Below, one piece after another: positions 7,137-54,073 of a stretch of 64,000 nt of DNA. The stretch covers positions 1,824 to 65,823 of the forward strand of contig JBDSMH010000017.1 of the NCBI GenBank assembly GCA_039915945.1, in the 5' to 3' direction. The stretch is from Acidimicrobiales bacterium. Lineage in GTDB: Bacteria > Actinomycetota > Acidimicrobiia > Acidimicrobiales > WLNW01. The position numbers were made by a program, and so were the translations under genes. Positions within the stretch are counted from its first letter, which is position 1; every line of letters starts with the position of its first letter. The notes beneath the pieces were generated by a model, which did no database searches, had not been told where the DNA came from, and worked only from the letters and a program-made list of their open reading frames with translations.

Positions 7137-7269
7137 CGACCTCCTTGCCGGCCCCCCGGCAGCAGTTAGGTGCGAGGAACGGTACGGCTACTGCCCGCAG
7201 TGGCGCAAGGGCTACCTGCACGCTCGCGGGCCGCTCGGGCCGTCGACTGCTCCGCTCTAGTCTCAGCCC

Positions 7270-15305: not shown

Positions 15306-15332
15306 TGGAGGGCGAGCCTACCGGGGTGTGCC

Positions 15333-15472
15333 GGTCGCCTTCGTTTTGGCGTGACGGCCAGGCGATCTGCGGCACACCAGCGGCACCGCTGAGAGCTGCT
15401 GCCTCCCGGCCCTGACTCGGTTCACGGACGCTCGTTGCACAGGACCCGACCGTCACACCAAAACGAAGGCGA
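15333..15472 (-). ncRNA. ffs: signal recognition particle RNA (small bacterial type) with extended closing helix
   Basis: The minus strand contains GUCAGGGCCGGGAGGCAGCAGC (domain IV motif; compare GUCAGGUCCGGAAGGAAGCAGC in E. coli 4.5S). The termini form a 24-bp helix GUCGCCUUCGUUUUGGUGUGACGG/CCGUCACGCCAAAACGAAGGCGAC. It lies directly upstream of dnaX, as in Bacillus. Confidence 0.75.
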
Positions 15473-15531
15473 CATCGGCCACGAACGATAGCCTGACCAT
15501 CCGGTTTCTCCTCGCCGCGCGAGGGCTACCC

Positions 15532-15619
15532 GGAGAGCTGGCCGAGCGGACTAAGGCGCACGATTGGAAGTCGTGTGTGGGGCAACTCACCGTGGGTTCG
15601 AATCCCACGCTCTCCGCCA
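15532..15619 (+). tRNA. tRNA-Ser (anticodon GGA), CCA encoded
   Basis: Hand-folded cloverleaf. Acceptor GGAGAGC/GCUCUCC, anticodon stem CACGA/UCGUG with loop UUGGAAG, long variable arm, T-loop GUGGG-UUCGAAU-CCCAC. Confidence 0.92.
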
Positions 15620-15698
15620 ATACGTTCTGGGGTCCGCTCCGGCCCCAAGTCGCGTCAGAAAGCCATCAACTGTGCGTGCGCCGCGCCGATGGAGACGC

Positions 15699-17180: not shown

Positions 17181-17214
17181 CCGACCGGTCGGCCGCGACC
17201 GCTAGGTTGCGAGG

Positions 17215-17685
17215 GTGCCCACGTTTTCAGAATTCGATCGCGAGTTGATGGCGATCGCCCTCGACGAAGCACAAGGCGCGCTCGCGCACGGTGACGTACC
17301 GATCGGCGCCGTGGTCGCGGTCGGCGATCGCGTCATCGCGCGGCGTCACAACGAACGTGAACTCACCGGAGATCCGACCGCGCACGCCGAAGTGTTGGCG
17401 TTGCGCGACGCTGCCAGCGCACTCGGCGGTTGGCGCTTCGACGGCGCGACGCTGGTGGTCACGATCGAGCCGTGCGTGATGTGCGCGGGAGCGGCGCATC
17501 AAGCGCGGTTGTCCCGGGTGGTGTTCGGCGCCTTCGACCTCAAGGCCGGTGCGCTCGGATCGCTCTACAACGTCGGCGTCGACGCGCGGCTCAATCACGA
17601 GTTCGCGGTCGACGGGGGTCTCATGGCCGAGCAGTGCGGGGCGCTGGTCTCGCAGTTCTTCACGCGACTCCGGCTCGATCCTTAG
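17215..17685 (+). CDS. tadA: tRNA adenosine(34) deaminase
   Basis: HAEVLALRDA and PCVMCAGA zinc-binding deaminase motifs. 156 aa. Confidence 0.92.
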   Translation: MPTFSEFDRELMAIALDEAQGALAHGDVPIGAVVAVGDRVIARRHNERELTGDPTAHAEVLALRDAASALGGWRFDGATLVVTIEPCVMCAGAAHQARLSRVVFGAFDLKAGALGSLYNVGVDARLNHEFAVDGGLMAEQCGALVSQFFTRLRLDP

Positions 17686-39008: not shown

Positions 39009-40332
39009 CACATTGCCGGCAATCACGCCGATGCCTCCGGTGGCGGCTATTGCCATGCCGTGGGACGAATCTATTGTCGATCCGGTGGCTGAGATCGCGG
39101 CAGCGCGCGCCACATGTGGTGACACGTTCGTCGTCGAGAGCGGTGACGATCGGTATCTGTTCTTGTTCTCGCCGGCGGGCGTACACAGCTTCTACGAGTT
39201 GCCCGAGAACGAAGCGAGCAAGGGCTACGCCGACTATCGGTTGTTGGTCCGCAAGCTTCCCGAAGAACTTTTCGTCGGACGGCGCACGATCATGCACACG
39301 CTGTTCGGCCGCGAGGATGTCGCGAGCTACCTGACGCATCTCGATCGGGCGATCGACGTGCAGTTCGAAGAGCTCGGTGATCGCGGTGAGTTCGAGGCGT
39401 TCGCCTTTACGCGACGGCTCGGTCATCGGCTCGGACTGACCTGCTGGGGCGGCGTGGCGCCGACGCGCAGTTCACTGTTCGATGAGTTGGTCGTCGCGCT
39501 CGATGCACTCGACGGTGCGGCCGCGTTCGTGAATCCCGGCGAGATGGCGGCGGTCGCCGCGCAAGGCAAGCGCGCCGAGCGCGACGCGCTCGCTCACGTC
39601 GAGGCGTTGATGATCGATGTGATCCGCGCCCACGACGCCGGCGCCACGGGTGCGAACGAATTGTTCTCGCGCATAGTCAACGCGTGGGGTGACACGGCCG
39701 AGCCCGATCGCTCGATCGGCATCGCGCGCGATGTGATCGTGGCTCACCTCGGTTCGATGTCCAACCTCTTCGCCGCAATGGGGTGGATGATCGTCCACCT
39801 CGTCGAGCGGCCCGCGGTGTTGGCGCGTGTGCGCGACGGCGAGGCGGGGTTCGTCGAGAAGTGCGCGCTCGAGTCGACTCGCATCGCGCAGCGTTCGATC
39901 ATGCTGCGGTCGGTGATGGCGCCGACGAGGGTGTCAGACGAGAACGCCACCTACGAGGTCGCCGCCGGAGCCATCATCGGCACGCTGCTCCCGCTGACCA
40001 ATACGACCGCCATGCCCGGCCTCGACGGATACGACCCCGATCGGTGGCAACGGCGGCGGTTGCGCGACGAGCGACTGCTGCCGGCGCGTGAACTCGTCAC
40101 GACGTTCGGCCACGGCTCACACACCTGCCCGGCCCAGCCATTCTCCCTGTCGGCGATGTCGAAGTCGGCGTCCCGCCTGGTCGAGCGCTATGACCTCGAG
40201 GCCGCGTTCGACAACCCCCGCCCGGTGCAAGGCCAGATCGGTGGCGTAGCCCGCAGCCAGAACCCGTGCACGATCCGGTATTCGGCACGTGAGACGAAGA
40301 ACTCACGTTCAGGCGCGGCCGACGGTCGCTAG
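39001..40332 (+). CDS. cytochrome P450
   Basis: ExxR (ESTR) and heme loop FGHGSHTCPAQ. The ATG overlaps the LLM stop by 8 nt. Confidence 0.9.
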   Translation: MANTLPAITPMPPVAAIAMPWDESIVDPVAEIAAARATCGDTFVVESGDDRYLFLFSPAGVHSFYELPENEASKGYADYRLLVRKLPEELFVGRRTIMHTLFGREDVASYLTHLDRAIDVQFEELGDRGEFEAFAFTRRLGHRLGLTCWGGVAPTRSSLFDELVVALDALDGAAAFVNPGEMAAVAAQGKRAERDALAHVEALMIDVIRAHDAGATGANELFSRIVNAWGDTAEPDRSIGIARDVIVAHLGSMSNLFAAMGWMIVHLVERPAVLARVRDGEAGFVEKCALESTRIAQRSIMLRSVMAPTRVSDENATYEVAAGAIIGTLLPLTNTTAMPGLDGYDPDRWQRRRLRDERLLPARELVTTFGHGSHTCPAQPFSLSAMSKSASRLVERYDLEAAFDNPRPVQGQIGGVARSQNPCTIRYSARETKNSRSGAADGR

Positions 40333-40346
40333 AATTCACCGACCTC

Positions 40347-40420
40347 GGGGACGTAGCTCAGCTGGCTAGAGCACCTGCTTTGCAAGCAGGGGGTCGTGGG
40401 TTCGAGTCCCATCGTCTCCA
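40347..40420 (+). tRNA. tRNA-Ala (anticodon TGC), CCA not encoded
   Basis: Acceptor GGGGACG/CGUCUCC with a G3:U70 pair, anticodon stem CCUGC/GCAGG with loop UUUGCAA, T-loop GUGGG-UUCGAGU-CCCAU. Confidence 0.92.
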
Positions 40421-40549
40421 CTCATTTTCCCGTATTTGGGGCGGCCGCAGGAGGTCTGCCTCCAGATCAACCCGGCGGTTGCGGGCTGCGCCGTGAAACG
40501 TCGCATGACACTCCGTGCCGCCCGTCGAGCGCCCCCATCGCATGCGGCT

Positions 40550-42181
40550 CTAGCCGGCAACTAGGCCTGGCTCGTATTCCAATGGCACCTCGAGGCCCAG
40601 CAGACTTAAAACGGTCGCTGCCACGTTTGCGAGGCCAGCGTCGGGGAGGTCGTGGCGCAGCTCAAGTAGCGGCCGTGCAAAGTCTTTCACGATGAACGGT
40701 ACGGGGTTCAGCGAGTGCGCGTTCCGTGGAATGACGTTCCCGTCACGATCGGTGGCAGGGTTTCCGTCGGCCGAGCGTTCGACTTTGTCTTCTGCATTGC
40801 CATGGTCGGCGGTGACGATTAGGCAGCCGGATACTTCGCGTGCTGCTTTCGCAATTCGGCCGATGGCGAGGTCGACGCTTTCGACGGCGATTCGGATGGC
40901 CTCGAAGTTCGCCGTGTGGCCGACCATGTCGGGGCCAGCGAAGTTCAGACGAATAAATTCGTACATGCCAGAGGAAATCGCGGACATAGCGGCGTCCGCT
41001 GTTTCTGCCGATTTCATCCATGGACGTTCGTCGAACGGCACCTGATCGGAAGGGATCTCAACGTAGGTTTCGGTCGCGTCGTCGAACTTGTCCGAGCGAT
41101 TCCCGTTCCAGAAATAAGTGATATGACCGAATTTCTGCGTCTCGGCGCCCGCCCACTGGCGCAGTCCGACGCGACTGATGAGTTCGCTCACGGTGTTGGC
41201 CACCGATTGCGGTTCGACAAGGTAGTGCCGGGGCGTATTGGTATCCCCGTCGTATTGCAACATGCCGAGGTAGAACACGGCGGGTACTCCGCCGCGATCG
41301 AAGTGCGTGAATTCAGGACCGCTCTCGATCGCCTGCGAGAACTCGATGGCTCGATCACCACGAAAGTTGAAGAAGATCACAGCGTCACCGTCGATGAACT
41401 TGCCGACGGGTGCGCCATCTTCGCCTACGACGGTGAACGGGGGAAGGAGTTGGTCGCTGATCCCTGGTCTAGTCGATCGACTCCACTCAATTCCCTCATC
41501 GACTGAGTGAACTGGATGGGCCGTCCCGAGGACATGGGCTCGCCAACCTGCCTCAACAATGCGCCAGTCAGCACCGTACCGATCCATCGTTGTCACCATC
41601 CGGCCACCCCCGGACGCGAAGGCAAAGTCAAGATCTGGGAACCGGGATGCGTAGGTCCGCAGGCGGTCTACGTAGAGGCCGGCCGTATGATCTGGCACGT
41701 CCCTACCGTCAAAGAGTGCATGCAACCTGACGCGCGAGATGCCGTCACTCACAGCTCTTGCGATTATCGCTTCGAGATGGTCGATGTGCGAGTGCACGTT
41801 GCCATCAGACAACAAGCCAACCAGATGCAGGGTCGAGGAAGTGCCAGCGCAGCATCGGAGAACCTCGAGCCAAGCTTTCGAAGTCCAAGTGGCGCCCGCC
41901 GCGATGGCCTCGTTGACCCGCTTCGCGCCTTGGTCGAATATGCGGCCTGCACCAAGTATGTTGTGACCGACCTCTGAGTTGCCCATGTCGGCATCGGTCG
42001 GAAGCCCGACGGCCTGACCGTGCGCGCGAAGCGTCCGATACCGACCAGACGCCTGCAGCTGCTTCAAATTTGGCGTGTGCGCGGCTGCCACCGCGTCATA
42101 CGCATCGCCACGTCCGACACCGACCCCGTCCATCACCACCAAGACAAGCGGGGTAGCAGCAGTGCGTCTGCCGGTAGTCAT
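40550..42181 (-). CDS. gpmI: 2,3-bisphosphoglycerate-independent phosphoglycerate mutase
   Basis: LVVMDGVGVG...GLPTDADMGNSEVGHNILGAGRI...TADHGNAE motifs. GC about 57-58% in hand-counted 60-nt samples, versus about 65% upstream. Confidence 0.9.
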   Translation of the reverse strand: MTTGRRTAATPLVLVVMDGVGVGRGDAYDAVAAAHTPNLKQLQASGRYRTLRAHGQAVGLPTDADMGNSEVGHNILGAGRIFDQGAKRVNEAIAAGATWTSKAWLEVLRCCAGTSSTLHLVGLLSDGNVHSHIDHLEAIIARAVSDGISRVRLHALFDGRDVPDHTAGLYVDRLRTYASRFPDLDFAFASGGGRMVTTMDRYGADWRIVEAGWRAHVLGTAHPVHSVDEGIEWSRSTRPGISDQLLPPFTVVGEDGAPVGKFIDGDAVIFFNFRGDRAIEFSQAIESGPEFTHFDRGGVPAVFYLGMLQYDGDTNTPRHYLVEPQSVANTVSELISRVGLRQWAGAETQKFGHITYFWNGNRSDKFDDATETYVEIPSDQVPFDERPWMKSAETADAAMSAISSGMYEFIRLNFAGPDMVGHTANFEAIRIAVESVDLAIGRIAKAAREVSGCLIVTADHGNAEDKVERSADGNPATDRDGNVIPRNAHSLNPVPFIVKDFARPLLELRHDLPDAGLANVAATVLSLLGLEVPLEYEPGLVAG

Positions 42182-42592
42182 GTATATGCCCAGCCCAACT
42201 CTGTTCGCGAGGGTTCGTGCTCCGGCGCGTTAGCTTACCGAGATGCGTAGCCGTGGCCGATCCCGACCAGACTGACTTCGTTGTCCGACGAGCAGCCTTC
42301 TCTCCTCAATGAGCGTCGGACCGTTGGAACGCCTGGCGCGGTTCCCAACCGAGGATGTCGCGCAATATGGACGATCCGTACGATTTTTGGCTGAGCCATC
42401 TTCACCTCAGTGGCGCGAACGCGCGCGCTTCGCGTGCCGTGTCCACATCGACACAGTGGTGCAACGAGACGCAGTCGTCGCGCTCGCTTTGAAACCGCAT
42501 CGCGCGTATTTACGCGCAGTCGCTCACGTTGGCCGCCATCGCGCTCAAGTTGCGGCAGGCTTTTGACACTGCAGAGCCTTCGCGGTACTTTC

Positions 42593-42616
42593 CTATCTGG
42601 TTAATTAACCAGATAG
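42593..42616. promoter_or_regulatory. perfect 24-bp palindrome, probable ArsR-family operator
   Basis: CTATCTGGTTAATTAACCAGATAG lies 22 nt upstream of the ArsR-like gene start, in an AT-rich patch. Confidence 0.6.
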
Positions 42617-42637
42617 CTAAGATAAGCGGGGTGGCAC

Positions 42638-43000
42638 GTGGCGGTGGTGATCTCTGAGGACCGACTGAGCGAGACGTTCGCGGCGCTGTCCAACTCGACC
42701 AGGCGAGCGATCCTGGCGCGTCTGGCGCAAGGTGAAGCGAACGTCAACGATCTTGCTGCGCCGTTCGACATGACGCTTCCCGCGATCTCGAAGCACCTCA
42801 AAGTGTTGGAGCGAGCCGGCTTGGTCGTGCGGGGCCAGCGCGCGCAGTACCGACCTTGCGCGCTCGACGCCGCGCCCCTCGAGGAGATCTCGACTTGGGC
42901 CGAGCAGTACCGGCCAATATGGGAGGCCCGCTTCGACCGAATGGACGACTACATCCGTCAACTCCAACTGCAACGAAAGACCGACGAACCCCATGACTGA
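42638..43000 (+). CDS. ArsR/SmtB family transcriptional regulator
   Basis: FAALSNSTRRAILARLAQGEANVNDLAAPFDMTLPAISKHLKVLERAGLV wHTH. Confidence 0.88.
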   Translation: MAVVISEDRLSETFAALSNSTRRAILARLAQGEANVNDLAAPFDMTLPAISKHLKVLERAGLVVRGQRAQYRPCALDAAPLEEISTWAEQYRPIWEARFDRMDDYIRQLQLQRKTDEPHD

Positions 43001-43490
43001 CAGCAACGCTTCACGCGACGCAGTAGTAATCCATCGCATCTTCGATGCGTCGGCCGATCTCGTCTGGCAGATGTGGACCGAGCCGGAGCACTTCCAGGCG
43101 TGGTACGGCCCCGATAGTGCGAGCATCGTCGTCGCACGCATGGACGTGCGCGTCGGAGGCACGCGACTTGTGAGCATGGAGATGCACACACCAAACGGCA
43201 CCATGCGCATGTGGTTCACCGGCGAATACCGCGAGGTCGTGGCGAACAAGCGCCTCGTCTACACAGAGTCGATGTCCGACGAGCACGGCAATGTCTTGTC
43301 GCCATCGGACCTCGGTATGCCTGACGGACATCCCACCGCTACCGAAGTCATCGTCGAACTCGAAAGCATCGGCGGTCGTACGAAGATGGTGCTGACGCAC
43401 GTCGGCGTGCCCGAAGACTCCCCCGGCGCCGCAGGCTGGACGATGGCGCTCGACAAGCTCTCCCGCCACGTCGAAACTCTTCGGCGCTAG
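42993..43490 (+). CDS. SRPBCC (Aha1/START-like) domain protein
   Basis: RIFDASADLVWQMWTEPEHFQAWYGP...RLVYTESM...GWTMALDKL. It has an 8-nt overlap with the ArsR gene, which is a common pairing. Confidence 0.85.
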   Translation: MTDSNASRDAVVIHRIFDASADLVWQMWTEPEHFQAWYGPDSASIVVARMDVRVGGTRLVSMEMHTPNGTMRMWFTGEYREVVANKRLVYTESMSDEHGNVLSPSDLGMPDGHPTATEVIVELESIGGRTKMVLTHVGVPEDSPGAAGWTMALDKLSRHVETLRR

Positions 43491-43529
43491 ATACGGCGCT
43501 TCGGAGTTCTTGCATCGGTTCAAAAATCA

Positions 43530-43561
43530 GAGTTGGGGCTCCCCGAAGGAAGCCCCAACTC
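43530..43561. terminator. bidirectional terminator hairpin between convergent genes
   Basis: GAGTTGGGGCT-CCCCGAAGGA-AGCCCCAACTC forms a perfect 11-bp stem between the SRPBCC (+) and amt (-) genes. Confidence 0.6.
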
Positions 43562-43596
43562 CGAATCGTTGGTACCGATAAGGAAGACGGTTGCGG

Positions 43597-45075
43597 CTAG
43601 TTGCGGCCGGCCGTCTGAGCAAACTCTGGATAGGCAACCACACCCATCTCCGGCAGGTCGAGGCCGACGAGTTCGTCCTCTTCCTTCGAGCGGATCGGCG
43701 TGATCTTGTTGGACAACTTGAACCATCCGAAGGCGATGCCGAACATCACTGTCCAGATCACTGCGACTGCGATCGCCTGCGACGCGAGCTGGCCGATGCC
43801 ATCGCCAAAGTTGTGGAAGATACCGGTGACTCCGGAAAGCTCGGCCCCTTTGCCTTCCGTCGTGAGGTTCCAGCCGGCGCCGTACTTGCCGTTGGCAAAC
43901 AGTCCGACAGCAAGAGCGCCGAAGGTACCGTTCACGCCGTGCACCGAGATGGCACCGACCGGATCGTCGATCTTCAGCTTGTTCTCGACGAAGCTGATGG
44001 AGAGCACAACCAGCACGCCGGCAATCGTACCGATGATCGCCGCCGAGATCGGGTCGACGAATGCGCACGGGGCCGTGATCGCCACGAGGCCGGCGAGCAT
44101 GCCGTTCGCCATCATTCCGGGGTCAGGCTTTCCGGTGCGCCACATCACCCATACCATCGAGCTGACTGCGCCGAATGCGGCGGCGATCGCCGTATTGGCC
44201 GCGACCAGCGCAAACCGTACGTCCGTCACCGCAAACGTGGAGGCCGCGTTGAACCCGAACCAACCGAACAGCAGGATGAAGGTACCGAGCATCGCCATCG
44301 GGATGTGGTGGCCGAGCAATGCCCGTGGCTTGCCATCCTTGAACTTCCCGATGCGAGGGCCGATCACGATTGCGCCCGCAAGAGCTGCAGCGCCACCCAT
44401 TGCGTGCACGATGCCGGAGCCGGCAAAGTCGACGTAGCCGACGCCGAGATGCGCGCTGTTGCCGAGCTGCGACAGCCAGCCGCCGCCCCACGTCCACGCA
44501 CCGAAGAGCGGGTAGTAGATCGCGCCGCAGAACAAGCCCCACAGAACGAAGTTCTTCCATTGCCACCGTTCAGCCATCGAACCGGTAGGGATCGTGGCGA
44601 CAGTGTCCATGAACGCAACCATGTAGAGGAAGTAACCAGCGAGCGCCGCGCCGCCCGGGCCATTCAGATCGGTGAGCCCGAATCCACCCTTCCATAGGAA
44701 CACCCAATGTCCTGAACCGATGAAGTTCTCACCAGGGGCGGTGTCGAGCCCAATGAGCGGCAAGGAGAACCCGCCGAACATGAAGCCGTAACCGACGATG
44801 AAGAACGCGACGAAGCCGAGCCCGAAGATGGCGAAGTTGGTCGACACGACATGCGCCGCATGCTTGGCCCGGCAAAAACCGGTCTCGACCAACGCGAAAC
44901 CGGCTTGCATGAAGATGACGAGCACCGCACCGAGCACAACCCAGAGCAGGTTGACCTGCGTACCGAGAAGTGCAACGGGATCTGCGGCGTCATCCTGCGC
45001 GAAAGCCGGAGCTGCGATCGTGAGCATCCCTGCGACAGCGATGCTACCGATCAGTACTTTTCGCTTGAGCCTCAC
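43597..45075 (-). CDS. amt: ammonium transporter with signal peptide
   Basis: GTG 45075 is preceded by GGGGAGGAGA. FMQAGFALVETG...VHGVNGTFGALAVGLFA... Amt/MEP motifs. Confidence 0.92.
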   Translation of the reverse strand: MRLKRKVLIGSIAVAGMLTIAAPAFAQDDAADPVALLGTQVNLLWVVLGAVLVIFMQAGFALVETGFCRAKHAAHVVSTNFAIFGLGFVAFFIVGYGFMFGGFSLPLIGLDTAPGENFIGSGHWVFLWKGGFGLTDLNGPGGAALAGYFLYMVAFMDTVATIPTGSMAERWQWKNFVLWGLFCGAIYYPLFGAWTWGGGWLSQLGNSAHLGVGYVDFAGSGIVHAMGGAAALAGAIVIGPRIGKFKDGKPRALLGHHIPMAMLGTFILLFGWFGFNAASTFAVTDVRFALVAANTAIAAAFGAVSSMVWVMWRTGKPDPGMMANGMLAGLVAITAPCAFVDPISAAIIGTIAGVLVVLSISFVENKLKIDDPVGAISVHGVNGTFGALAVGLFANGKYGAGWNLTTEGKGAELSGVTGIFHNFGDGIGQLASQAIAVAVIWTVMFGIAFGWFKLSNKITPIRSKEEDELVGLDLPEMGVVAYPEFAQTAGRN

Positions 45076-45450
45076 GCCGATCTCCTCCCCTGCTGTGCCA
45101 GTTCGTCGAACCCGTGCATCGGGCCTCCCTTGTGCGTTGGCCCGTACAACATGGACGGGACTCTGAATCGGGGCTGACGTTAGAAAGACGTGGTTTCTCG
45201 GCTGTTCCACCTATGTGAACAGTCCGATTCCACTTTCTTATTGGAATCTTTCGATTGCGCGTCGCCGTGGCGCAGTGGTCAGCGCACTCATGACCGACTC
45301 GTGAACCAACGTCGGGAGGCAGGCTGGGCCGACCATACTTCGTCACACCACCGTTGCAAAAAACGGCAATCGCCTCGACACGCGCCCTGCCCGCTGTCGT
45401 TAACACTCTGTTCACTGTTCCGCCATCTTGTTGGCATCTGGCGCGCTTAG

Positions 45451-48204
45451 ATGAGGTCGGTGCTCGCTCTTCTTGCTGCCGAAACTGCGACTTCGGCGCT
45501 TTCGGTACCCGACGTCCTTCTCGACCTTCTCATCGTCCTCATCGCAGCGAAAATCGGTGCTGAGCTCTCCGAGCGCGTCGGAATACCGGCCGTGGTTGGC
45601 GAAATACTGGTCGGCATCGCCATTGGACCATCGGCGCTCGATCTCGTCGGTGACGGCGACGTCATTCACTTCCTCGCCGAACTCGGTGTGATCATGCTCT
45701 TGCTCGAGGTCGGCATGGAGATGGACCTCCGGGAGCTCGCCGCAGTGGGCCGAAGCTCGATGCAGGTCGCATTAGCCGGCGTGGTACTTCCGTTTGCGGC
45801 GGGCGCAGGCGTGATGCTTTTGTTCGGCAAGAGCGGCAATACGACGTTGTTTGTCGGGGCAGCGTTGACCGCTACGAGCGTGGGCATCACGGCACGCGTA
45901 TTCGGCGATTTGCGCGCACTAACGACCGCCGAGGCTCGAACAGTGCTCGGTGCGGCCGTTGCCGACGACGTCCTCGGACTCGTGATTTTGACCGTCGTCG
46001 TTCGCATCGTCTCCGAGGGCACCGTCAGTTTCGGCACGGTCGCCAACATCGCCGGCGTGGCAGTTCTGTTTCTCTTCGGTGTTGGCGCGATCGGTGTAGT
46101 CGCCGCGCCCAAACTCTTCAACTTTGTGCAACGACTCGCTCGCGGCAATGGCACCGTGTTTGCGGTCGCAATCGCGTTCACTCTGCTGATCGCCGTACTT
46201 GCCGATGAAGCGAAGCTGGCGCCGATCGTCGGCGCTTTTGTCGCAGGTCTCGCCCTCGGTCGCACTAGTCAGGTTGACCGAGTGCGGCGCGACCTCGGTT
46301 CGGTCATCCATATCCTCGTGCCGATCTTCTTCGTGCGCATCGGCATCGACTCTGATGTCTCGGAGTTCAAGCGCCCGGCTGTGTTGGGGTTGGCGGGATG
46401 TCTCGTAGTCGTCGGCGTATTGGGAAAGATTGCGGCGGGACGCTTCGCAACTTCGAGTTCGGGCGACCGGCTGCTGATCGGCCTGGGCATGATCCCTCGC
46501 GGCGAGGTCGGGTTGATATTCGCCGGCATCGGCCTGACCGAAGGGGTGTTGACCGGGGACCTCTATGCGGCGTTGTTGGTAGTTGTGTTGGTGACCACAT
46601 TGGTGACGCCACCGGTCTTGAAAGTTCGCTACACGCGACTCAACCGCAGACAGCCGGTGGCGGCCGCCGACGCGACACCGCCAGTCGGCGGGTGGTTGCA
46701 GACCCACGATGGAGTGGTCGACTTGGCGGGCACCCCGCCGCAGGATCTCGGGCTCGTCATCGCACTCAGCGCTGCGCGCGCGATCGAAGAAGCTCAACCT
46801 GGTCCCGCGCTGCTCGAATGGCTCAACAATCTGACCGATCAAGCGTTCACTTGGGACCGTGAGACGACCGAGTCGCTTTTCACGCTACTGAGGGACGGCG
46901 GCCATCGCGCGTGGCGTTTTCTCTACACGACGGGAGCGCTCGAGCGTGCGCTGCCCGAGTTGTCCAACGCCATCACTGCGCGCCGCTCTGATCCGTACAT
47001 CGTGGACTCGGGCGGAGAGCTCCAATGGCAACTCGTCGACGCAGTGCACAGTTTCCTCGTAGCTGCGCCGGACCCGGTGACTCGCCACATTCGACATCCC
47101 GAGCGGCTCGTCCTTGCTGCGCTCGTACTCGACGTCACGGCCGCGGACAGCGCGTTGACCGTCGACATCGCGCACAAGCTCGTCCAGCGGTTGGAGCTAC
47201 CCGCGGTCGCGGCCGATGAAGTCGCACTACTCGTGGGCGACCATGGCCTGCTCCTCGCCGCCTCTCGACGCGTCGACGCGTTCTCCGAAACGTCAGTTCA
47301 GCAACTCGCCATTCGTCTACGTCATCGAGAATGCGCCGCCGCGCTCTACACACTCACGTTGGCGTATTTCGACCTCGAGCAGATCGATCGGCAGCGCTTG
47401 GTGCAGCTTTGGACGTTGCTCGACGCAACGCTGGCGACCTACGAATCAGGCATGCCGGAACTCGGCGACATTCTCGAACATCGCCGTGAGCAGGCGATTG
47501 CCGGTGTGGGCGAGAACTTACTGGCGCGCCGACGTATCAACACCGGCCCGATGGCGTGGCTGCTCTCCGCGTCCCCAGAGACATTGTCGCGTCAAGCACT
47601 TGCGATCTACCCCGCTCGACAAGATGCAGACCTGCGAGTCTTCTTCATTTCCGACGGACTCACACTGGACGTGGTGTGTGGGGATCAGCCCGGTTTGCTC
47701 GCCGCCGTGACCGCAGCGATCGAATCCTTCGGCATCGATATCACCAGCGCTGTCGCGGCGACTTGGCCGGACGCAATGGCGTTGTCGTCATTCGGCCTCG
47801 CCAATGGCACTTCGCCTTTCGATACCGATGAGCTCCGAGAGCGCATTGCTACATTCCTCGAGACGCCCGCCGAAACGCATCCGATTGTCGACGTCGTTGT
47901 GACGACCGATAACGAAGCGTCTCCGTGGTACACGGTCCTCGCCGTCGAGGCTGACGATCGGCCAGGTCTGCTTCACGCCATCACCGCTGCGATCGCCAGA
48001 GGCGGCGGGACGATCCATAGCGCTCGGGTGGCAACCACAACCGTCGGAAGAGCGCTGGATACATTCGAGTTGTCCGACGCCGCCGGCGCAAAGCTCACGG
48101 ACGACCACATCGCTGACATCGAGTCGTTCATACGGACCGGTGCGAAGCCGACAGGCCCGTCACGTCGGGGGACCTTCCTTCGCAAGGCACGCGGCGAATG
48201 GTGA
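45451..48204 (+). CDS. fusion protein: CPA2 (Kef-type) cation/proton antiporter + GlnD-like C-terminal region (degenerate HD, two ACT domains)
   Basis: aa 1-390 are Na+/H+ exchanger-family TM segments (AELSERVGIPAVVGEILVGIAIGP...). aa 470-700 align to the GlnD central/HD region without His-Asp (LAALVLDV). Two ACT domains are present (CGDQPGLLAAVTAAI and ADDRPGLLHAITAAI). Confidence 0.8.
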   Translation: MRSVLALLAAETATSALSVPDVLLDLLIVLIAAKIGAELSERVGIPAVVGEILVGIAIGPSALDLVGDGDVIHFLAELGVIMLLLEVGMEMDLRELAAVGRSSMQVALAGVVLPFAAGAGVMLLFGKSGNTTLFVGAALTATSVGITARVFGDLRALTTAEARTVLGAAVADDVLGLVILTVVVRIVSEGTVSFGTVANIAGVAVLFLFGVGAIGVVAAPKLFNFVQRLARGNGTVFAVAIAFTLLIAVLADEAKLAPIVGAFVAGLALGRTSQVDRVRRDLGSVIHILVPIFFVRIGIDSDVSEFKRPAVLGLAGCLVVVGVLGKIAAGRFATSSSGDRLLIGLGMIPRGEVGLIFAGIGLTEGVLTGDLYAALLVVVLVTTLVTPPVLKVRYTRLNRRQPVAAADATPPVGGWLQTHDGVVDLAGTPPQDLGLVIALSAARAIEEAQPGPALLEWLNNLTDQAFTWDRETTESLFTLLRDGGHRAWRFLYTTGALERALPELSNAITARRSDPYIVDSGGELQWQLVDAVHSFLVAAPDPVTRHIRHPERLVLAALVLDVTAADSALTVDIAHKLVQRLELPAVAADEVALLVGDHGLLLAASRRVDAFSETSVQQLAIRLRHRECAAALYTLTLAYFDLEQIDRQRLVQLWTLLDATLATYESGMPELGDILEHRREQAIAGVGENLLARRRINTGPMAWLLSASPETLSRQALAIYPARQDADLRVFFISDGLTLDVVCGDQPGLLAAVTAAIESFGIDITSAVAATWPDAMALSSFGLANGTSPFDTDELRERIATFLETPAETHPIVDVVVTTDNEASPWYTVLAVEADDRPGLLHAITAAIARGGGTIHSARVATTTVGRALDTFELSDAAGAKLTDDHIADIESFIRTGAKPTGPSRRGTFLRKARGEW

Positions 48205-48590
48205 GCGATCCAATGTCACGCCCAGCGCGAAGCTGCGCCCACCTGTACTGAAAATGTCAAGGTGTAACGGTTTCAATCGGCGCCGTAGGCGGTAGATGCG
48301 ATCGTAGAGTTCTGCGTCTCGGAGGCCCTCCCGGCCACAGCGCCAACTCCAAATCCTCGCGAGTCACGAGCTTCCCGTCTGCCGCGCGCAACGCATGGAC
48401 AATCACCGCTTCCGATGCTGGAAGCGTCACCGAACCGCTGCTGTTGTGGAGAACCGAATCGTCGACGAATACCGGGCGACAGAAAACGGACAGGCTCTAC
48501 AGTCGGACAACGACGTCCGCATCGTCGGCGGGAAGCCGGATCCAGTCCTCCCAGGCCTCGACCTCATGAGGCTTGGCCTTCGGGCTATCG
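48160..48590 (-). pseudogene. decayed OmpR/PhoB-type winged-helix (Trans_reg_C) regulator gene
   Basis: The minus strand reads ...WIRLPADDADVVVRL-TAG-SLSVFCRPVFVDDSVLHNSSGSVTLPASEAVIVHALRAADGKLVTREDLELALWPGG. A frameshift then leads into ELYDRIYRLRRRLKPLHLDIFSTGGRSFALG. No start codon. Confidence 0.6.
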
Positions 48591-48745
48591 CAACTGACTC
48601 CATGGCGGACTTCTACTCAGCGGGTCTTGCGCTCGGCTGATGCGGTGCCGCGAGGATATCTGTAGCGATTGGGAGCGCGTCGACGAGTACACGGAGGTAC
48701 CGGCGCTGCCGGCGCTGCCGGCGCTGCCAAGCGTGCGGTCGTCGT

Positions 48746-49021
48746 TCATTCCGCCATTGTTGCTTGATAGCGCTGCGCGACCTGTTCTGCGGTCCACACC
48801 TCTGCCCAAGGACCGTCGCGTTCCTCGACGGGTTCCTCGCCGCGCTTGAAGAGGATGAAGCCCTTCTCGATGCCTTCAACCCAGTGCGACGCCTTGTCGA
48901 AAACGGTCTGTAGCTCCCACCCGCGCTGACCGACGTACGACAGAGTGATCCCGAGGTTTCTGGCTGCGTAGACGCTGCCGATGCTCACAATTCGGTACTG
49001 CCAGCGCACGAATTCAGCCAT
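48746..49021 (-). CDS. DUF4177-like small protein
   Basis: MAEFVRWQYRIVSIG...VGQRGWELQTVF...GFILFKR resembles the DUF4177 pattern (WEYK...GWELV...FKR). Confidence 0.45.
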   Translation of the reverse strand: MAEFVRWQYRIVSIGSVYAARNLGITLSYVGQRGWELQTVFDKASHWVEGIEKGFILFKRGEEPVEERDGPWAEVWTAEQVAQRYQATMAE

Positions 49022-49236
49022 GGCCGCGACGGTAGCGGCAGATCGCAGCACACATCATGAGCTGTCCGGATCAGGCGCGAGAGTTCTACCGCGTGGAACA
49101 TCAAGACGTGCACAACACGACGTCGCAGCAAGCCCACTCGAGTCTCGACGCGGTGCACGACAAATGGACGGCGCACCACAAACGGCTACGATCGCACCGC
49201 TTCTCCCCGAGCCGAACTTGTAGTTAGGGAGGAGTA

Positions 49237-50064
49237 GTGATCGGCAGCGAAACCCCGCAACCGGGTTGGTGGCGCGCCAACGACGGCCGCTGGTATCCGC
49301 CTGAGTCACTCCCCGCCGGCTGGTTCATCGACGCCGCCACCGCAACGCCGCGGATTCCGCCGCTGCCCCCAGTGCCACCACGGTCGAAGTTGGCTGCGCC
49401 TTCGCCCCGTGAGCCGCTCTTGACTCGCACGCCCACCTTCGCTCTCGATTCCGCACCCAAGAAGGCGCTGCCGACGCGCGCCTGGCGGCGCTATCTCGGA
49501 TGGCCGCTGTGGGCAAAGATCAGCGCGCCGATCGCAGTTCTCGCACTGGCGGGATGCATGCCCGACTCCAGTAGCGGAAACGGCGAAGCCAAGGTAGACA
49601 CCAACGGGTCTTCGGTCACCGTCATTTCGACAACGACCGTTCCCGCGGCAACGACCGCGACCAGCACGACGACACGAGCCACGACGTCGTCGCCGACAAC
49701 GGCAACGACAACGACTCGACCACCGACGACCACCACGACTACTCGACCGCCGACAACGACGGCCGCTCCCCAGCCGCCCCCTCCGCCGCCAGCTACAGCA
49801 ACGTGTACGGCTTCGATGTCGAACGCCTCGCCTCGGCGCGGCGCAGTCGTAACCGTCTCAGTCGCGTCCTCGTTGCCGAACTCTCCGATCGCGATCGTCG
49901 CGCACTACAAGACGAAAGACTCGTACTTCTCAGGTGTCACCGGCGCGAACGGTGCCGGGTCCGTTTCCTTCGATACCGGCGGCCCAACAATCGGATACAC
50001 CGTCGTCGTCAACGTGACGGTCGGCGCGATTACACGTTGTTCAACGAGCTTCACTCCGATCTGA
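49237..50064 (+). CDS. membrane/lipoprotein with N-terminal DUF2510-like WW motif, Thr/Pro-rich linker and Ig-like C-terminal domain
   Basis: GWWRANDGRWYPPE, a TM segment with LALAGC, a TTTTRPPTTT repeat linker and a beta-rich C-terminus. Confidence 0.65.
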   Translation: MIGSETPQPGWWRANDGRWYPPESLPAGWFIDAATATPRIPPLPPVPPRSKLAAPSPREPLLTRTPTFALDSAPKKALPTRAWRRYLGWPLWAKISAPIAVLALAGCMPDSSSGNGEAKVDTNGSSVTVISTTTVPAATTATSTTTRATTSSPTTATTTTRPPTTTTTTRPPTTTAAPQPPPPPPATATCTASMSNASPRRGAVVTVSVASSLPNSPIAIVAHYKTKDSYFSGVTGANGAGSVSFDTGGPTIGYTVVVNVTVGAITRCSTSFTPI

Positions 50065-50072
50065 CGACTGTC

Positions 50073-50858
50073 GTGATCCGTCGTTCGTGGAACCGTTCCA
50101 AAGCGTGGCCGTGGTGGGCCCAAGGGCTCATGGTTCTGCTGTGTCTCATTGCCATCGGTGGCTTCATCGACGCGACTGACGGCACGAACGAGTCGACACG
50201 ACAGCTACTAACTGACGTCCCAACCACGACGACAACCCTCACCGAACTGACGACAACTACTTCGACCAACGTGTCGAGTACATCGGCCGTTACGACCCGG
50301 CCGCCGGCACAACGTACCCAGACCCTGGCGCTCATCGACACGCTCGAGGTGGCCTCGCCAAATACGGCACAGCCCTACCGGCGAGCGGCATTCGGCGACG
50401 ACTGGATCGATGCGGACAATGACTGCCACAACACGCGCGCCGAAGTCCTCATGCAAGAGGCCACCGCCCAAGTCACGTTCAACGCCAACGGGTGCACGGT
50501 GAACACCGGATCATGGACCGATCCATGGTCCGGATTCACCTCGACATCGGCGGGCGACTTTCAGATCGATCACACCGTCCCGCTCGCTGACGCCTGGCGG
50601 TCGGGCGCAGCGCAATGGGACGACGCGACGCGGTTGCGTTTCGCCAACGATCTCGCCGACCCCGACACGCTCAACGCGCTGCGGGGAACGATCAACACTG
50701 CGAAAAGCGACAAGACCCCGGACCAATGGCAGCCACCATTGCGCTCGGCGTGGTGCCACTACGCGACCGCATGGGCACGAATCAAGTCCACTTGGCAGCT
50801 GACGACCGCGGCCGCTGAACTCGCGGCGCTCAAGAACATGGCCGCCGAGTGCGCTTGA
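50073..50858 (+). CDS. membrane-anchored HNH/His-Me finger nuclease (DUF1524-like)
   Basis: TM anchor and Thr-rich linker. FGDDWIDADNDCHNTRAEVL...DFQIDHTVPLADAWRSGA...NALRGTINTAKSDK. Start uncertain (GTG 50073). Confidence 0.65.
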   Translation: MIRRSWNRSKAWPWWAQGLMVLLCLIAIGGFIDATDGTNESTRQLLTDVPTTTTTLTELTTTTSTNVSSTSAVTTRPPAQRTQTLALIDTLEVASPNTAQPYRRAAFGDDWIDADNDCHNTRAEVLMQEATAQVTFNANGCTVNTGSWTDPWSGFTSTSAGDFQIDHTVPLADAWRSGAAQWDDATRLRFANDLADPDTLNALRGTINTAKSDKTPDQWQPPLRSAWCHYATAWARIKSTWQLTTAAAELAALKNMAAECA

Positions 50859-50907
50859 TTGCCATACCTGAGACCGCTCGCCGTGGGGCAAATTGCGATC
50901 CACTCAT

Positions 50908-51309
50908 TTAGCTGGCAGCGTCAGGACCGACGGCGAAGAGGTGCCAATGACCGTCGACGCCTTTGAGTTTGTGCGCACCGCGATCGTCGAAGCGCAGCGG
51001 CGAGCCGACGACGAGCTCTGTGACGGTGTGTACGTCCAGACCGTCCCGGGCTCGGCGAGCGAGGCGATGCGTGCGGCGATGTCGACCGCGATTCCAGCGA
51101 CGTCGTCGCCTCGGAGCGACCCAGCCGTAGCGTTGCCAGTAGAGGCCGACGAAGATGTCGGACTGCGCCAAGTACGCGCGATTGAGCTCGCGCGGAGGAT
51201 GAGGCCGGGCGCCGAGCTCGAACATCACCGGCGTGAGCCGCAACGACGTGATCGCTCGGGCCACCGCGGCGCGCTCTTCGGCGAGCGTCGAGCTCACGAA
51301 GACCCGCAG
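50908..51309 (-). pseudogene. chimeric remnant: DUF4062 N-terminus joined to 3' end of a class III nucleotidyl cyclase domain
   Basis: RVFVSSTLAEERAAVARAITSLRLTPVMFELGA...DIFVGLYWQRYGWV (DUF4062) breaks near 51115. The +1 frame then reads GDDVAGIAVDIAARIASLAEPGTV. After a further shift the track frame reads TVTELVVGSPLRFDDRGAHKLKGVDGHWHLFAV (cyclase C-terminus). Confidence 0.55.
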
Positions 51310-51385
51310 ACGCTTGCATCCGTCCTAGAAAGATCGCCCTCGAAGTCTGGACGGTCGTTCCTGAAAGCGGCAACGTCGAGGGGGC

Positions 51386-53407
51386 TTAGATGGTCTCGAC
51401 CTCGACGAGGTTGTCGCAGAACGTAGGCCCATTGGCAAGGTCGCCGAGCGAATCATTGGTGAGGCTGTTTGCCCCCGCTGTTTCGGGATCGCCGCGCCAA
51501 CGGCCAAACGGGACCGCAACCGTGCCTTCTGGGACCTTGTCGGTAACGGACGCGGTACATCGAATGCGTCCGAGATCGTTGTAGACGCAGATGCGGTCGC
51601 CGTCGGCGATGTCTCGCGCCGCCGCGTCATGCGGATGGATCTCGGCCTTTGTCTCTGGTTCCGCGTTGAGCAAGACAGGAAGACTTCCGTACGACGAGTT
51701 GATCGAGTAGTGCCGCTTGAGTGTGAGGAGCCGCAGTCGATAGCCGCCCGCAGCCGATGGTGTATTGGCGGGTGGACGGTATTCGGCGACCGGATGCAGG
51801 CCGGTCGAGCCCAGCGCGTCGCAGGAGAACGCGAACGTCGCGTCCGCCGATATCGCGGTGCCTATTGGCGAGCCAACTCTGAGGAAGCCCGCGTCTCGCA
51901 GAGCAACCGCAGTTGCGCCGGCAGCATCGGCGGGTGAATCTGCGAGCGCGAGCTCCATCAGCTGATGGTCATCCAGGCGGAACAACGCTTCAGTGAAACC
52001 GAGTCGCGCCGCGAGGAGACGGGCGACCTCGGCGTTGGCCTTCGATTCGCCGACCGGAGCGATGGCTGCTTCGTTCCATGAGAGGTAAGAGAATCCCCAC
52101 GAACCGACGAGATCGGCATGCTCCAGCATCGTGGTCGCGGGCAGCACGATGTCCGCGTGTCGCGCGGTGTCGGTGAGGAACTGGTCGTGCACGACGGTGA
52201 ACAGGTCGTCCCGGCGCAGACCTTCGAGCACGAGCTGTTGGTTGGCGGCAATGACCGCCGGGTTGCTGTTCCACACGTACAGCGCTCGAATAGGAGGGCG
52301 CATCGCGGGGTCGGTGAGTACGCGTCCCAACTGGATCATGTTGACTTCGCGTACGCCCGTAGGTTTGAGGTCTGGTCGCGCCAACGATGGCAGATTGACC
52401 TGACCGATCGACACTGCGCCGCTGATCCCTCCGGCCGGCCACTGCCATTGGCCGGTGAGCGCAGGCAGGCACTGGATTGCTCTCAGCGCAGTGCCCGCAT
52501 TTGTCGACCGTTGCATTCCGACGCCGATGCGAATCGCAGCCGGCCGCGCCGTTGCATAGAGATGCGCGAACTCGGTGATGTCGTAGACGGTGCAACCAGT
52601 CTCCTGTGCCGCCCGTTCAGGAGTCCATCGCTCGACAGCGGCGCGGTACTGGTCGATGTCGGTTGTATGCCCGGTGACATACGCATCGTCTTGTAGCCCG
52701 TCACGAAAGATGATGTGAGCGGCCGCGAGTGCAAGTGCGCCATCGGTGCCGGGATGCGGGCGTAGGTGAATGTCCGCGTACGCGGCCGTACGACTGCGGT
52801 AGGGATCTATCACAACGAGTTTGGCGTCACGTTCCTTGCGGGCGCGTCGAATGAGTTCCCATGTGTGGATGGATGTCGCGACCGGGTCCATCCCCCAAAC
52901 GACGACGGTTTCGGCATCGGGCAGGTTTTCGGGATCAGACCAAGGCCAACGCGTCAACCCGGTCAAGGCGAACCACTGCGGCCCGCAGATCGACCGCTCG
53001 AGTTGCGTGGCACCGAGCCGGTTGAACACTGCCTGCATCGTGCCGAACCCGTCCAGCAGACCCATCGATCCCAAGTACGAATATCCGAGAATCGCCTCTG
53101 CGCCCTCCGCCGCGATGATCGATCGCCATCGCGTCACAATTTCGTCGAGTGCCTCGTCCCATCCGATGGCTTCGAACTCACCGCCTCCTTTCGGCCCGCT
53201 GCGGCGCATCGGCGACAGCAGCCGGTCAGGGCTGTAGACGCGCTCCAAGTAGCGATCAACCTTCACACAAAGATGACGTCCGGTGACAGGATGCGATGTA
53301 TCCGCTCGGATATCAACCGCTCGGCCGCTCTCATCGACAGTGACGAGCGCACTGCATGCGTCGGGACAATCGTGGGTACAAGTGATCCGCACGGACTGAT
53401 GTGCCAT
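51386..53407 (-). CDS. molybdopterin-dependent oxidoreductase (MopB superfamily)
   Basis: 673 aa. N-terminal Cys cluster CTHDCPDAC...C, a molybdopterin-binding core and a C-terminal beta-barrel (ICVYNDLGRIRCTASVTDKVPEGTVAV). Confidence 0.88.
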   Translation of the reverse strand: MAHQSVRITCTHDCPDACSALVTVDESGRAVDIRADTSHPVTGRHLCVKVDRYLERVYSPDRLLSPMRRSGPKGGGEFEAIGWDEALDEIVTRWRSIIAAEGAEAILGYSYLGSMGLLDGFGTMQAVFNRLGATQLERSICGPQWFALTGLTRWPWSDPENLPDAETVVVWGMDPVATSIHTWELIRRARKERDAKLVVIDPYRSRTAAYADIHLRPHPGTDGALALAAAHIIFRDGLQDDAYVTGHTTDIDQYRAAVERWTPERAAQETGCTVYDITEFAHLYATARPAAIRIGVGMQRSTNAGTALRAIQCLPALTGQWQWPAGGISGAVSIGQVNLPSLARPDLKPTGVREVNMIQLGRVLTDPAMRPPIRALYVWNSNPAVIAANQQLVLEGLRRDDLFTVVHDQFLTDTARHADIVLPATTMLEHADLVGSWGFSYLSWNEAAIAPVGESKANAEVARLLAARLGFTEALFRLDDHQLMELALADSPADAAGATAVALRDAGFLRVGSPIGTAISADATFAFSCDALGSTGLHPVAEYRPPANTPSAAGGYRLRLLTLKRHYSINSSYGSLPVLLNAEPETKAEIHPHDAAARDIADGDRICVYNDLGRIRCTASVTDKVPEGTVAVPFGRWRGDPETAGANSLTNDSLGDLANGPTFCDNLVEVETI

Positions 53408-53473
53408 CAGCAGTCTCCCCTCGAGAGCGATTCAGGCTTACACCTCGGGACGCCGATTGTCGAGAAGCAGCGT

Positions 53474-53596
53474 TCAGCGAATGCGAACCTTGGTGACGAC
53501 TCGTCCGAGCTGCCGCGCGCCCACCCACTCGACCAAGTAGTAGCCGGCCTTCACGATGAAGAATTCGGCCTTGACAAGGCGGTAGATGATGAACAT
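53474..53596 (-). CDS. possible 40-aa small protein upstream of the molybdoenzyme gene
   Basis: MFIIYRLVKAEFFIVKAGYYLVEWVGARQLGRVVTKVRIR. About 33 of 39 third positions are G/C. It is below the ORF-track length cutoff and has no clear RBS. Confidence 0.3.
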   Translation of the reverse strand: MFIIYRLVKAEFFIVKAGYYLVEWVGARQLGRVVTKVRIR

Positions 53597-54073
53597 TGCA
53601 GCGAGGCTCAAGGACACGCCTGGGGGTAGGGCCACGCCAGACGTGACTCGGATGAGAGCAAGCTAGCGACGCCGGCGCGTGATGTTGTGGATGGACCTCG
53701 TCATGCCTGAACGGGATACTCGACCGTCGTGATGATTCCGCCCCGTATGGATTGGGTCAGACGAACCGCAACGTCGGACACAGCAGGAGCGAATGCCGCG
53801 ATGCCGTCGTGCAACTCGACGGCGAGCTCCTCGGCGAATATCCGGCGGTCGCGAAATCCGACAAGCCACAATTTGAACGACTTGGACTCGAGCGCGTGCG
53901 TCCTGCGGTGTAGCTGATCTCCGCGTCGTATCGGTCAGCTCGACGGACCGTCCCAACATGCTGATTTCGGAAGGCTCAGGCACCACGCACTCCATCGCTG
54001 TTCGACTGGCGCGACGAGGCTACGCGTCGGCGCACCGTCTCGTTGACACGTTTCGTCGCTGCCGCCCCGGGTA

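Follow-up and report, generated by a model that had tools for sequence, protein, structure and literature searches.

Results

A fused antiporter gene divergent from amt

The stretch of DNA analysed here, hereafter the window, comprises 64,000 nucleotides of contig JBDSMH010000017.1 from an Acidimicrobiales bacterium (GCA_039915945.1, positions 1,824 to 65,823 of the forward strand). It contains a gene for a 917-residue protein, the fusion protein, in which a CPA2 antiporter domain continues into a module related to the C-terminal part of GlnD. This gene is divergent from amt, which encodes an ammonium transporter, and the two share a 375-bp intergenic region (Table 1). A first-pass annotation made from the sequence had described this arrangement, and open reading frames, Pfam and NCBIfam all agree with it; the same architecture was found in more than 120 proteins. 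Pfam places Na_H_Exchanger at residues 31-390 (E 1.8e-60), and the AlphaFold model of the full-length protein has a predicted local distance difference test score (pLDDT) of 80. Judged from its sequence, the protein is a NapA-type (CPA2) antiporter whose cytoplasmic C-terminus is a GlnD-derived module.

The amt product matches Ammonium_transp (PF00909) with E 2e-100, and reaches 338.8 bits with the NCBIfam model TIGR00836, slightly below the cut-off of 343.3. Its gene is followed only by a terminator-like hairpin with a T-run, and no glnK comes after it. As the first-pass annotation had stated, no PII gene (glnK or glnB) was found in the window by tblastn with PII query sequences, the second of which was only approximate. 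Similarly, tblastn with a canonical GlnD found no second GlnD-like gene in the window and matched only the ACT region of the fusion itself.

Table 1. Positions of the fusion gene, its parts and neighbouring features in the window
Feature	Position	Strand	Basis or content
Whole fusion gene, 917 residues	45451-48204	+	Order: NapA-type CPA2 antiporter, adapter, pseudo-HD domain, ACT, ACT
Membrane domain, residues ~19-399, 13 helices	45505-46647	+	Pfam, phmmer, Foldseek
Flexible linker and family-specific adapter	46648-46827	+	AlphaFold models, 34-sequence alignment
Helical GlnD-HD-like domain, residues ~460-725, without catalytic His	46828-47625	+	TIGR01693, BLASTP against canonical GlnD
ACT domain 1, residues ~728-805, motif GDQPGLL	47632-47865	+	Pfam ACT and ACT_4; beta-alpha-beta-beta-alpha fold in the model
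ACT domain 2, residues ~815-897, motifs SPWYT and DDRPGLLH	47893-48141	+	Pfam ACT at residues 828-888; GlnD models including PRK03381
amt, 492 residues from GTG at 45075; frame open up to 45210; N-terminal signal-like segment	43597-45075	-	Pfam PF00909
Intrinsic-terminator-like hairpin directly 3' of the amt stop; 17-bp stem, 4-nt loop, TTTTT tail	43527-43564	-	Sequence
GlnR-box-like pentamers with 11-nt spacing, TCAC-n6-GGAAC-n6-GAAAC	45193-45218	-	About 130 nt upstream of the amt start, shared intergenic region
Two adjacent palindromes: CTGTTCCACCTATGTGAACAG (45202-45222) and GATTCCA-n9-TGGAATC (45226-45248)	45202-45248		Palindrome scan, amt/fusion intergenic region
Remnant of an OmpR-type winged-helix regulator gene, convergent with the fusion; in-frame stop, truncated C-terminus	48293-48571	-	tblastn with the L002 and L006 regulators (E 6e-6 and 9e-3)
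ArsR/HTH_5 regulator (120 residues) overlapping an AHSA1/SRPBCC-family protein (165 residues) by 8 nt	42638-43490	+	
Thr/Pro-rich protein	49237-50064	+	No Pfam match
Open reading frame overlapping the Thr/Pro-rich gene	within 49237-50858	+	C-terminal GmrSD_C match (DUF1524-type nuclease domain), E 4e-7

The membrane domain is NapA-like

The closest solved relative of the membrane domain is NapA, an electrogenic CPA2 Na+(Li+)/H+ antiporter of Thermus thermophilus. In phmmer searches the match to NapA (4BWZ, 5BZ2) has E 2e-61, against E 1e-13 for KefC, a distant relation. Foldseek aligns the AlphaFold model with inward-facing NapA (5BZ2) at a TM-score of 0.90, a root-mean-square deviation of 2.7 A and 38% identity. 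Two of the 13 helices in the model are broken (residues 141-157 and 346-352), as in the NhaA-type fold with its discontinuous crossing helices. The unwound-helix motif ATSVGITARV is the same in both proteins, and D172-D173, K326 and the R350/E352 pair are invariant across 34 homologues, where they align with the ion-site residues of NapA, including the lysine of transmembrane helix 10; the corresponding NapA numbering is D156/D157 and K305. The DD motif is kept by 47 of the 48 listed representatives of at least 840 residues. The assignment of the ion site also draws on a study of KefC, according to which K+ exchangers carry a QD motif, and ND or DD marks Na+/H+ exchangers (PMC11150392).

The first-pass annotation had called the antiporter Kef-type, and this label has to be given up. 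KefC is K+ selective and has QD, whereas the fusion protein has DD; Pfam finds no KTN/RCK (TrkA_N) domain on the fusion protein at E up to 1; and the KefC match is far weaker than that to NapA. The NCBIfam KefB and KefC models give only 65-75 bits, against cut-offs of 752-804. Kef-type K+ efflux is thus ruled out as the identity of the transporter. By its signature it is a NapA-type, probably electrogenic Na+(Li+)/H+ antiporter. Because all residues that NapA needs for electrogenic Na+(Li+)/H+ exchange are kept, in a predicted fold of the same kind, the membrane domain most likely still transports. NapA ends after transmembrane helix 13, whereas the fusion protein adds about 520 residues. The C-terminus is cytoplasmic in both NapA and KefC (PMC11150392), and the module should therefore face the cytoplasm.

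A GlnD-derived module without the catalytic His

The module begins after a linker of low pLDDT (residues 401-405) with an adapter at residues ~406-459, predicted as a beta-hairpin plus helices, in which P411 and W415 are invariant and which has neither a GlnD nor a Pfam match. From there on the protein is collinear with GlnD. Profile positions 366-843 (of 850) in TIGR01693, the NCBIfam equivalog model for GlnD, align with residues 460-892 (E 2.8e-23), and seven NCBIfam GlnD models match, other ACT-containing families being at noise level. The score with TIGR01693 is 82 bits against a curated cut-off of 519, and the C-terminal part is properly named GlnD-derived, not a GlnD. The first-pass annotation had recognised the homology but put its extent at two thirds of GlnD; the match spans approximately the C-terminal 57%.

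Neither Pfam HD (PF01966) nor GlnD_UR_UTase matches the central, helical region even at E up to 10, and its GlnD homology therefore rests on the full-length NCBIfam model and on BLASTP. Residues 401-725 by themselves still match TIGR01693 positions 366-557 (E 1.7e-7). BLASTP against a canonical 900-residue GlnD encoded in a related locus (L044) gives a single collinear alignment of 365 residues with 25% identity (E 8e-16), which pairs PERLVLAALVLDVT with PDALFLATLVHDIGKG and sets LATLVHDIGKG of GlnD opposite LAALVLDVT of the fusion protein. The His of the HD dyad is thus lost, and each of the 34 aligned homologues has L, V or I in its place. The first-pass annotation had the dyad lacking both residues, which is correct for the His only: the Asp is retained in the window copy, and is D or E across the family. 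Upstream of the dyad, the His region of GlnD, which we take to be of the 'H...YTVDEH' type, is replaced by 'RRRxDPFxLDP' in the 34-sequence alignment. Since both the dyad His and the upstream His region are replaced, metal-dependent hydrolysis by this pseudo-HD domain is very unlikely. The domain, which contains the motifs GALERALPEL and HPERLVLAALVLDV, is predicted with pLDDT 85-95. As first reported, the N-terminal uridylyltransferase part is absent: Pfam and NCBIfam find neither a nucleotidyltransferase nor a GlnD_UR_UTase (PF08335) domain in the fusion protein.

The two ACT domains, in turn, are well formed. Pfam recognises both, and the DQPGLL and DRPGLL motifs noticed at first reading are present. 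We used as criteria the Asp and Leu of the beta1-alpha1 loop and the Phe of a later strand, as found in GlnD, ACR11 and AMA2 (PMC11190351). The corresponding positions, D745, L749/L750 and F781 in the first domain and D836, L840/L841 and F872 in the second, are invariant or at least 90% conserved, which is only suggestive of glutamine as the ligand. In GlnD the response to glutamine needs the ACT domains, and ACT domains of the GlnD type impose glutamine control on an unrelated enzyme (PMC11190351). Judged from its sequence, the module is without both catalytic functions of GlnD but has kept its ACT pair.

Predicted alone, the module is one compact unit (pLDDT 86; predicted template modelling score, pTM, 0.83). 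In Foldseek searches the helical part resembles class-II tRNA nucleotidyltransferases (3WFO-3WFS, E 4e-5, ~280 columns), and the ACT pair resembles amino-acid-binding tandem-ACT proteins, namely the regulatory subunit of aspartate kinase, a GcvR-like protein and SerB2. The PDB holds no structure of GlnD, and a PDB sequence search with the module gave no match at E up to 1.

An Acidimicrobiia family under purifying selection

Among 5.8 billion proteins searched, more than 120 are full-length homologues (~900-920 residues, 49-78% identity) with the same Pfam architecture, almost all from metagenome-assembled genomes (MAGs) of Acidimicrobiales/Acidimicrobiia. The named ones carry no annotation beyond 'cation:proton antiporter' or 'KefB / ACT domain protein', and through such labels the co-occurrence of CPA2 and ACT domains is already visible in databases. 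In an exhaustive HMMER search, the C-terminal module alone matched 134 clusters (formed at 50% identity) with E 1e-30 or better. The top matches are ~880-920 residues long, with the module at ~390-880, and a CPA2 domain is present in all 48 listed representatives of at least 840 residues.

The alignment of 34 homologues is collinear from end to end, with invariant residues in every part, including W415, W488, P502-E503, R511, S824-P825-W826, D836, G839, L841 and H856. We computed the ratio of nonsynonymous to synonymous substitution rates (dN/dS, Nei-Gojobori) for seven pairs of related loci, and obtained values of 0.02-0.16 in the membrane domain, 0.05-0.23 in the pseudo-HD domain and 0.08-0.35 in the ACT pair. 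Purifying selection acts on all three.

These data bear on the possibility, raised in the first-pass annotation itself, that two genes were joined by an assembly artefact or that the gene is a decaying glnD paralog. The loss of the nucleotidyltransferase domain and of the catalytic His of the HD domain would be expected from decay. Yet a collinear protein of 900-920 residues occurs on more than 120 independent contigs and genomes, dN/dS is well below 1 in every part, the fold is predicted with confidence, and in some relatives a canonical glnD lies beside the fusion in the same locus. Hence, the junction is no artefact and the module is not decaying; we consider this explanation refuted, with next to no probability left to it.

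Shorter relatives exist as well. Five proteins of ~480-540 residues (P0127, P0135, P0178, P0186 and P0192) have a Met start just before the 'GGWL...DL' hairpin of the module, and could be stand-alone proteins of pseudo-HD and ACT domains rather than fragments of fusions; many short database matches (~470-580 residues) start within the transporter domain. In acIV/Ilumatobacteraceae-like actinobacteria (L060-L065 and L079, e.g. L060:10001-11773) we observed a 590-residue CPA2 protein with ~53% identity and without ACT domains. Its tail of ~190 residues has no Pfam match and only a weak likeness to the start of the module (hhalign probability 32%).

The fusion gene is linked to amt

A survey of the distribution of the fusion and of its linkage to amt, suggested by the first-pass annotation, covered 80 loci from species-representative genomes, none of them from a culturable member of the class. 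The full fusion is present in 57, nearly all labelled Acidimicrobiia, Acidimicrobiales, Ilumatobacteraceae or Microthrixaceae, and 37 loci count as well-flanked (at least 2.5 kb on both sides). An ortholog of the window Amt (62-75% identity) lies within 2.5 kb of the fusion in 28 of the 37 well-flanked loci, usually at 140-400 bp, and another amt or a glnK-amt pair adjoins it in three further loci. The orthologous amt is downstream on the same strand in 18 loci, upstream on the same strand in six, and divergent, as in the window, in four. When the flanking open reading frames were clustered without supervision, Amt ranked first (42 of 57 loci). The ACT-less 590-residue relatives in other actinobacterial MAGs also adjoin amt-glnK(-amt-glnK), and CPA2-only relatives of other phyla have no amt nearby. 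Because the linkage survives rearrangement into three gene orders, it is strong evidence for a functional tie between the fusion and ammonium uptake, as the first-pass annotation had proposed.

This conservation also makes it hard to regard the module as a structural tail, a scaffold for dimerisation or stability on a plain housekeeping Na+/H+ antiporter whose gene is near amt by chance. Constructs of KefC without the C-terminal domain are indeed unstable (PMC11150392). However, both ACT domains keep their D-x-P/x-G-L-L ligand loops and the conserved Phe, and an amt linkage over three gene orders, with recurring glnK, glnD and regulator genes, is difficult to explain without a role in nitrogen metabolism. 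We consider a purely structural tail very improbable.

Genes of the PII system are found in the same neighbourhoods. In 11 of the 37 well-flanked loci glnK lies within 10 kb of the fusion, and in five of the 57 fusion loci it adjoins it directly, at 119-530 bp (L021, L023, L034, L050 and L056). A canonical glnD (14946-17648, minus strand), with NTP_transf_2, GlnD_UR_UTase, HD and two ACT domains according to Pfam, is present in L044, where a true GlnD and the fusion thus coexist. Five more loci have a GlnD-like gene within a few kb; there tblastn aligns residues ~91-849 of the L044 GlnD, including its N-terminal half. In L044 we also observed two tandem glnK genes (7012-7752, minus strand) after amt on one side of the fusion, and on its other side the complete glnD at a distance of 2.3 kb. 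The lineage does not lack PII, and the absence of glnK from the window says nothing of the rest of the genome. The first-pass proposal of a PII-independent sensor is therefore not sustained.

Given these neighbours, the dead HD-like domain might bind modified (adenylylated or uridylylated) GlnK without hydrolysing it, so that PII would control the antiporter or be tethered by it. The HD domain is the uridylyl-removing site of GlnD and must therefore bind modified PII (Zhang et al. 2010, as cited in PMC11190351). The strong conservation of the pseudo-HD domain, with its low dN/dS and many invariant residues, fits such a function, as do the loci where glnK adjoins the fusion. Against this, most loci, including the window, have no adjoining glnK, no PII-binding surface has been structurally defined for GlnD, and the retained ACT pair by itself points to the sensing of a small molecule. 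A reader of PII is in our view distinctly unlikely.

A second Amt, a distant paralog (30-40% identity; e.g. L006:6221-7411, L011:10437-11711, L016:15437-16741), is present in many relatives. In the loci examined this paralog is followed by glnK, and the Amt ortholog linked to the fusion usually lacks a glnK of its own. This difference would suit a safety valve, in which the antiporter, like the CPA2 system AmhT, exports NH4+ (or K+) for H+, is opened at high glutamine and limits overload by an Amt that is usually without GlnK. The linkage of the fusion to this one Amt ortholog is tight, and the amhT genes are described as coding for NH4+/H+ antiporters (PMC9040632). Yet the ion site, with its DD and ATSVG, is that of the Na+/Li+-selective NapA, and a QD motif of the K+ type would better suit an ion of the size of NH4+. 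The proposal concerns the substrate and is compatible with gating by the module, but we think it unlikely.

A regulator gene belongs to the same surroundings: in 30 of the 57 loci, an OmpR-type winged-helix (Trans_reg_C) gene is located upstream of the fusion at a distance below 1.5 kb. The window has only the remnant of such a gene (Table 1); here the cluster has apparently been rearranged and the regulator lost. The best PDB matches of this regulator are generic effector domains of the OmpR/PhoB family, and it could not be identified as GlnR.

GlnR-type boxes upstream of amt

The intergenic region shared by amt and the fusion contains one site (45193-45208, extended to 45218) that matches, with one mismatch, GTnAC-n6-GAAAC, usually in tandem, which we take to be the GlnR-box consensus of Streptomyces and Mycobacterium; no GlnR gene was identified in this analysis. 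Alone, this site is weak evidence, and the consensus is not enriched across the whole window (8 matches against 11 expected). The three-pentamer pattern derived from the window site was rejected as evidence, being circular, and we give weight only to the test at the level of the family. In this test, 20 of the 38 regions upstream of Amt orthologs contain the consensus when a single mismatch is allowed, against a mean of 1.5 and a maximum of 5 in shuffles that preserve composition. Nearly all matches are on the amt strand, with opposite-strand matches also in three loci, and they lie mostly 95-145 nt upstream of amt, often as two boxes 22 nt apart. In Streptomyces venezuelae, nitrogen limitation induces a pair of putative Na+/H+ antiporter genes, one of which is tabulated among the genes affected by glnR/glnRII mutation (PMC3087709).

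Two AT-rich palindromes in the same intergenic region overlap or abut the GlnR-like box and are candidate operators; the exact palindromes are not conserved upstream of amt in the other loci.

Other features of the window

A segment of ~14 kb that includes amt and the fusion (window 40001-54000) has a G+C fraction of 0.61-0.64, compared with ~0.65-0.68 over most of the remaining sequence of the window. Immediately past the amt terminator, the overlapping ArsR and AHSA1 genes look like a small regulator-effector pair. On the other side of the fusion, the Thr/Pro-rich protein is probably secreted or membrane-anchored, and its gene is overlapped by an open reading frame with a match to a nuclease domain (Table 1).

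Discussion

Our results describe a conserved antiporter of the Acidimicrobiia that carries a catalytically dead derivative of GlnD and is encoded close to an ammonium transporter. We lean, on balance, towards reading it as a cation/proton antiporter gated by nitrogen status, probably by glutamine, and working together with ammonium uptake. The recurrence of the amt linkage throughout the family strengthens this hypothesis beyond what the window alone had suggested. The module would act as a cytoplasmic sensor that binds a small metabolite indicative of nitrogen status, most likely glutamine by analogy with GlnD, and would no longer modify PII. The ligand-bound module may then open or close the antiporter allosterically, in the way RCK domains gate KefC, where these C-terminal domains inhibit transport by contacting the transporter (PMC11150392). 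The antiporter would in this manner match the fluxes of cations and protons, or of charge, to ammonium uptake and assimilation. The transported cation would be Na+ by signature, and possibly NH4+ or K+. Such an activity could offset the charge and the protons that electrogenic NH4+ uptake and assimilation bring with them, it could drive a Na+ cycle for the Na+-coupled uptake of nitrogen compounds, or it could vent NH4+, as reported for the NH4+/H+ antiporter AmhT (PMC9040632). The system would operate within a conserved nitrogen neighbourhood of the Acidimicrobiia, formed by the winged-helix regulator, the fusion gene and an amt with GlnR-type boxes, often with glnK and sometimes with glnD nearby.

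Several observations weigh against this model. The pTM of the full-length prediction is 0.58, and the docking of the module on the transporter is thus not confidently predicted. Nine of the 37 well-flanked loci have no orthologous amt nearby. Upstream of the fusion gene itself, GlnR boxes occur in 7 of 51 loci against a shuffle maximum of 6, which is a marginal enrichment. Glutamine is a plausible ligand by GlnD ancestry only, and ACT domains bind many ligands. Finally, textbook accounts of ammonium uptake give no obvious role to a Na+/H+ exchanger.

The fusion protein can be set beside several known systems. With KefC and KefB it shares a design logic, that of a CPA2 transporter with a gating, ligand-binding domain at its cytoplasmic C-terminus (PMC11150392), although gating of the fusion is proposed by analogy. 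The regulator of KefC is a Rossmann-fold RCK domain that binds AMP and glutathione, whereas the fusion has a pseudo-HD domain and an ACT pair. In GlnD, the HD region and the tandem ACT domains, the latter implicated in glutamine sensing, are collinear and homologous with the module. However, GlnD has a nucleotidyltransferase domain, a GlnD_UR_UTase domain and the HD His, and the fusion, which lacks all three and is joined to a transporter, is predicted to be unable to modify PII. Plant ACR11 and the Chlamydomonas alpha-amylase AMA2 show that GlnD-like ACT domains are portable and can serve an unrelated effector as its glutamine-responsive regulator (PMC11190351, PMC12702975). Yet these are ACT-only proteins or soluble enzymes, whereas the effector of the fusion is a membrane antiporter and the pseudo-HD domain was carried along with the ACT pair. 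AmtB-GlnK and AmhT/AmhM respond to nitrogen status or pH by limiting or balancing the flux of ammonium, and are encoded beside transporter genes or as transporter genes. GlnK plugs AmtB directly, and AmhT, a CPA2 protein, works as a two-component system together with a KTN partner.

A more ambitious view combines these elements. The fusion protein and the adjacent Amt could form a two-transporter ammonium homeostat, in which the module would read glutamine through its ACT pair, and possibly modified GlnK through its dead HD domain, and would switch an antiporter that vents NH4+ or offsets the load of charge and protons of ammonium uptake; for this Amt paralog, the whole would stand in for what GlnK does as the plug of AmtB. 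We find this arrangement unlikely in its entirety. If true, it would provide the first example of a CPA antiporter under the control of an amino acid or of nitrogen status, and likewise the first of a GlnD pseudoenzyme recruited to regulate a transporter.

Full-text literature searches found no paper on a CPA antiporter with an ACT or GlnD-like domain, or on its linkage to amt, in line with the first-pass impression that the architecture had not been described. What seems new is the putative regulatory module and its specific nitrogen context, since the principle of a ligand-gated CPA2 transporter was already known. The known gates of CPA antiporters are RCK/KTN domains, cyclic-nucleotide-binding domains and pH; an ACT/GlnD-derived gate, if real, would add control by amino acids or nitrogen status. 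The hypothesis is readily testable, because the module is a soluble unit of 510 residues and antiporter assays are standard. Were it correct, ion and pH homeostasis would be tied directly to nitrogen assimilation, and GlnD would provide a clear case of an enzyme turned into a pseudoenzyme sensor domain. Soils, fresh water, oceans and activated sludge all harbour abundant Acidimicrobiia, and a conserved accessory of their Amt would bear on how they scavenge and tolerate ammonium.

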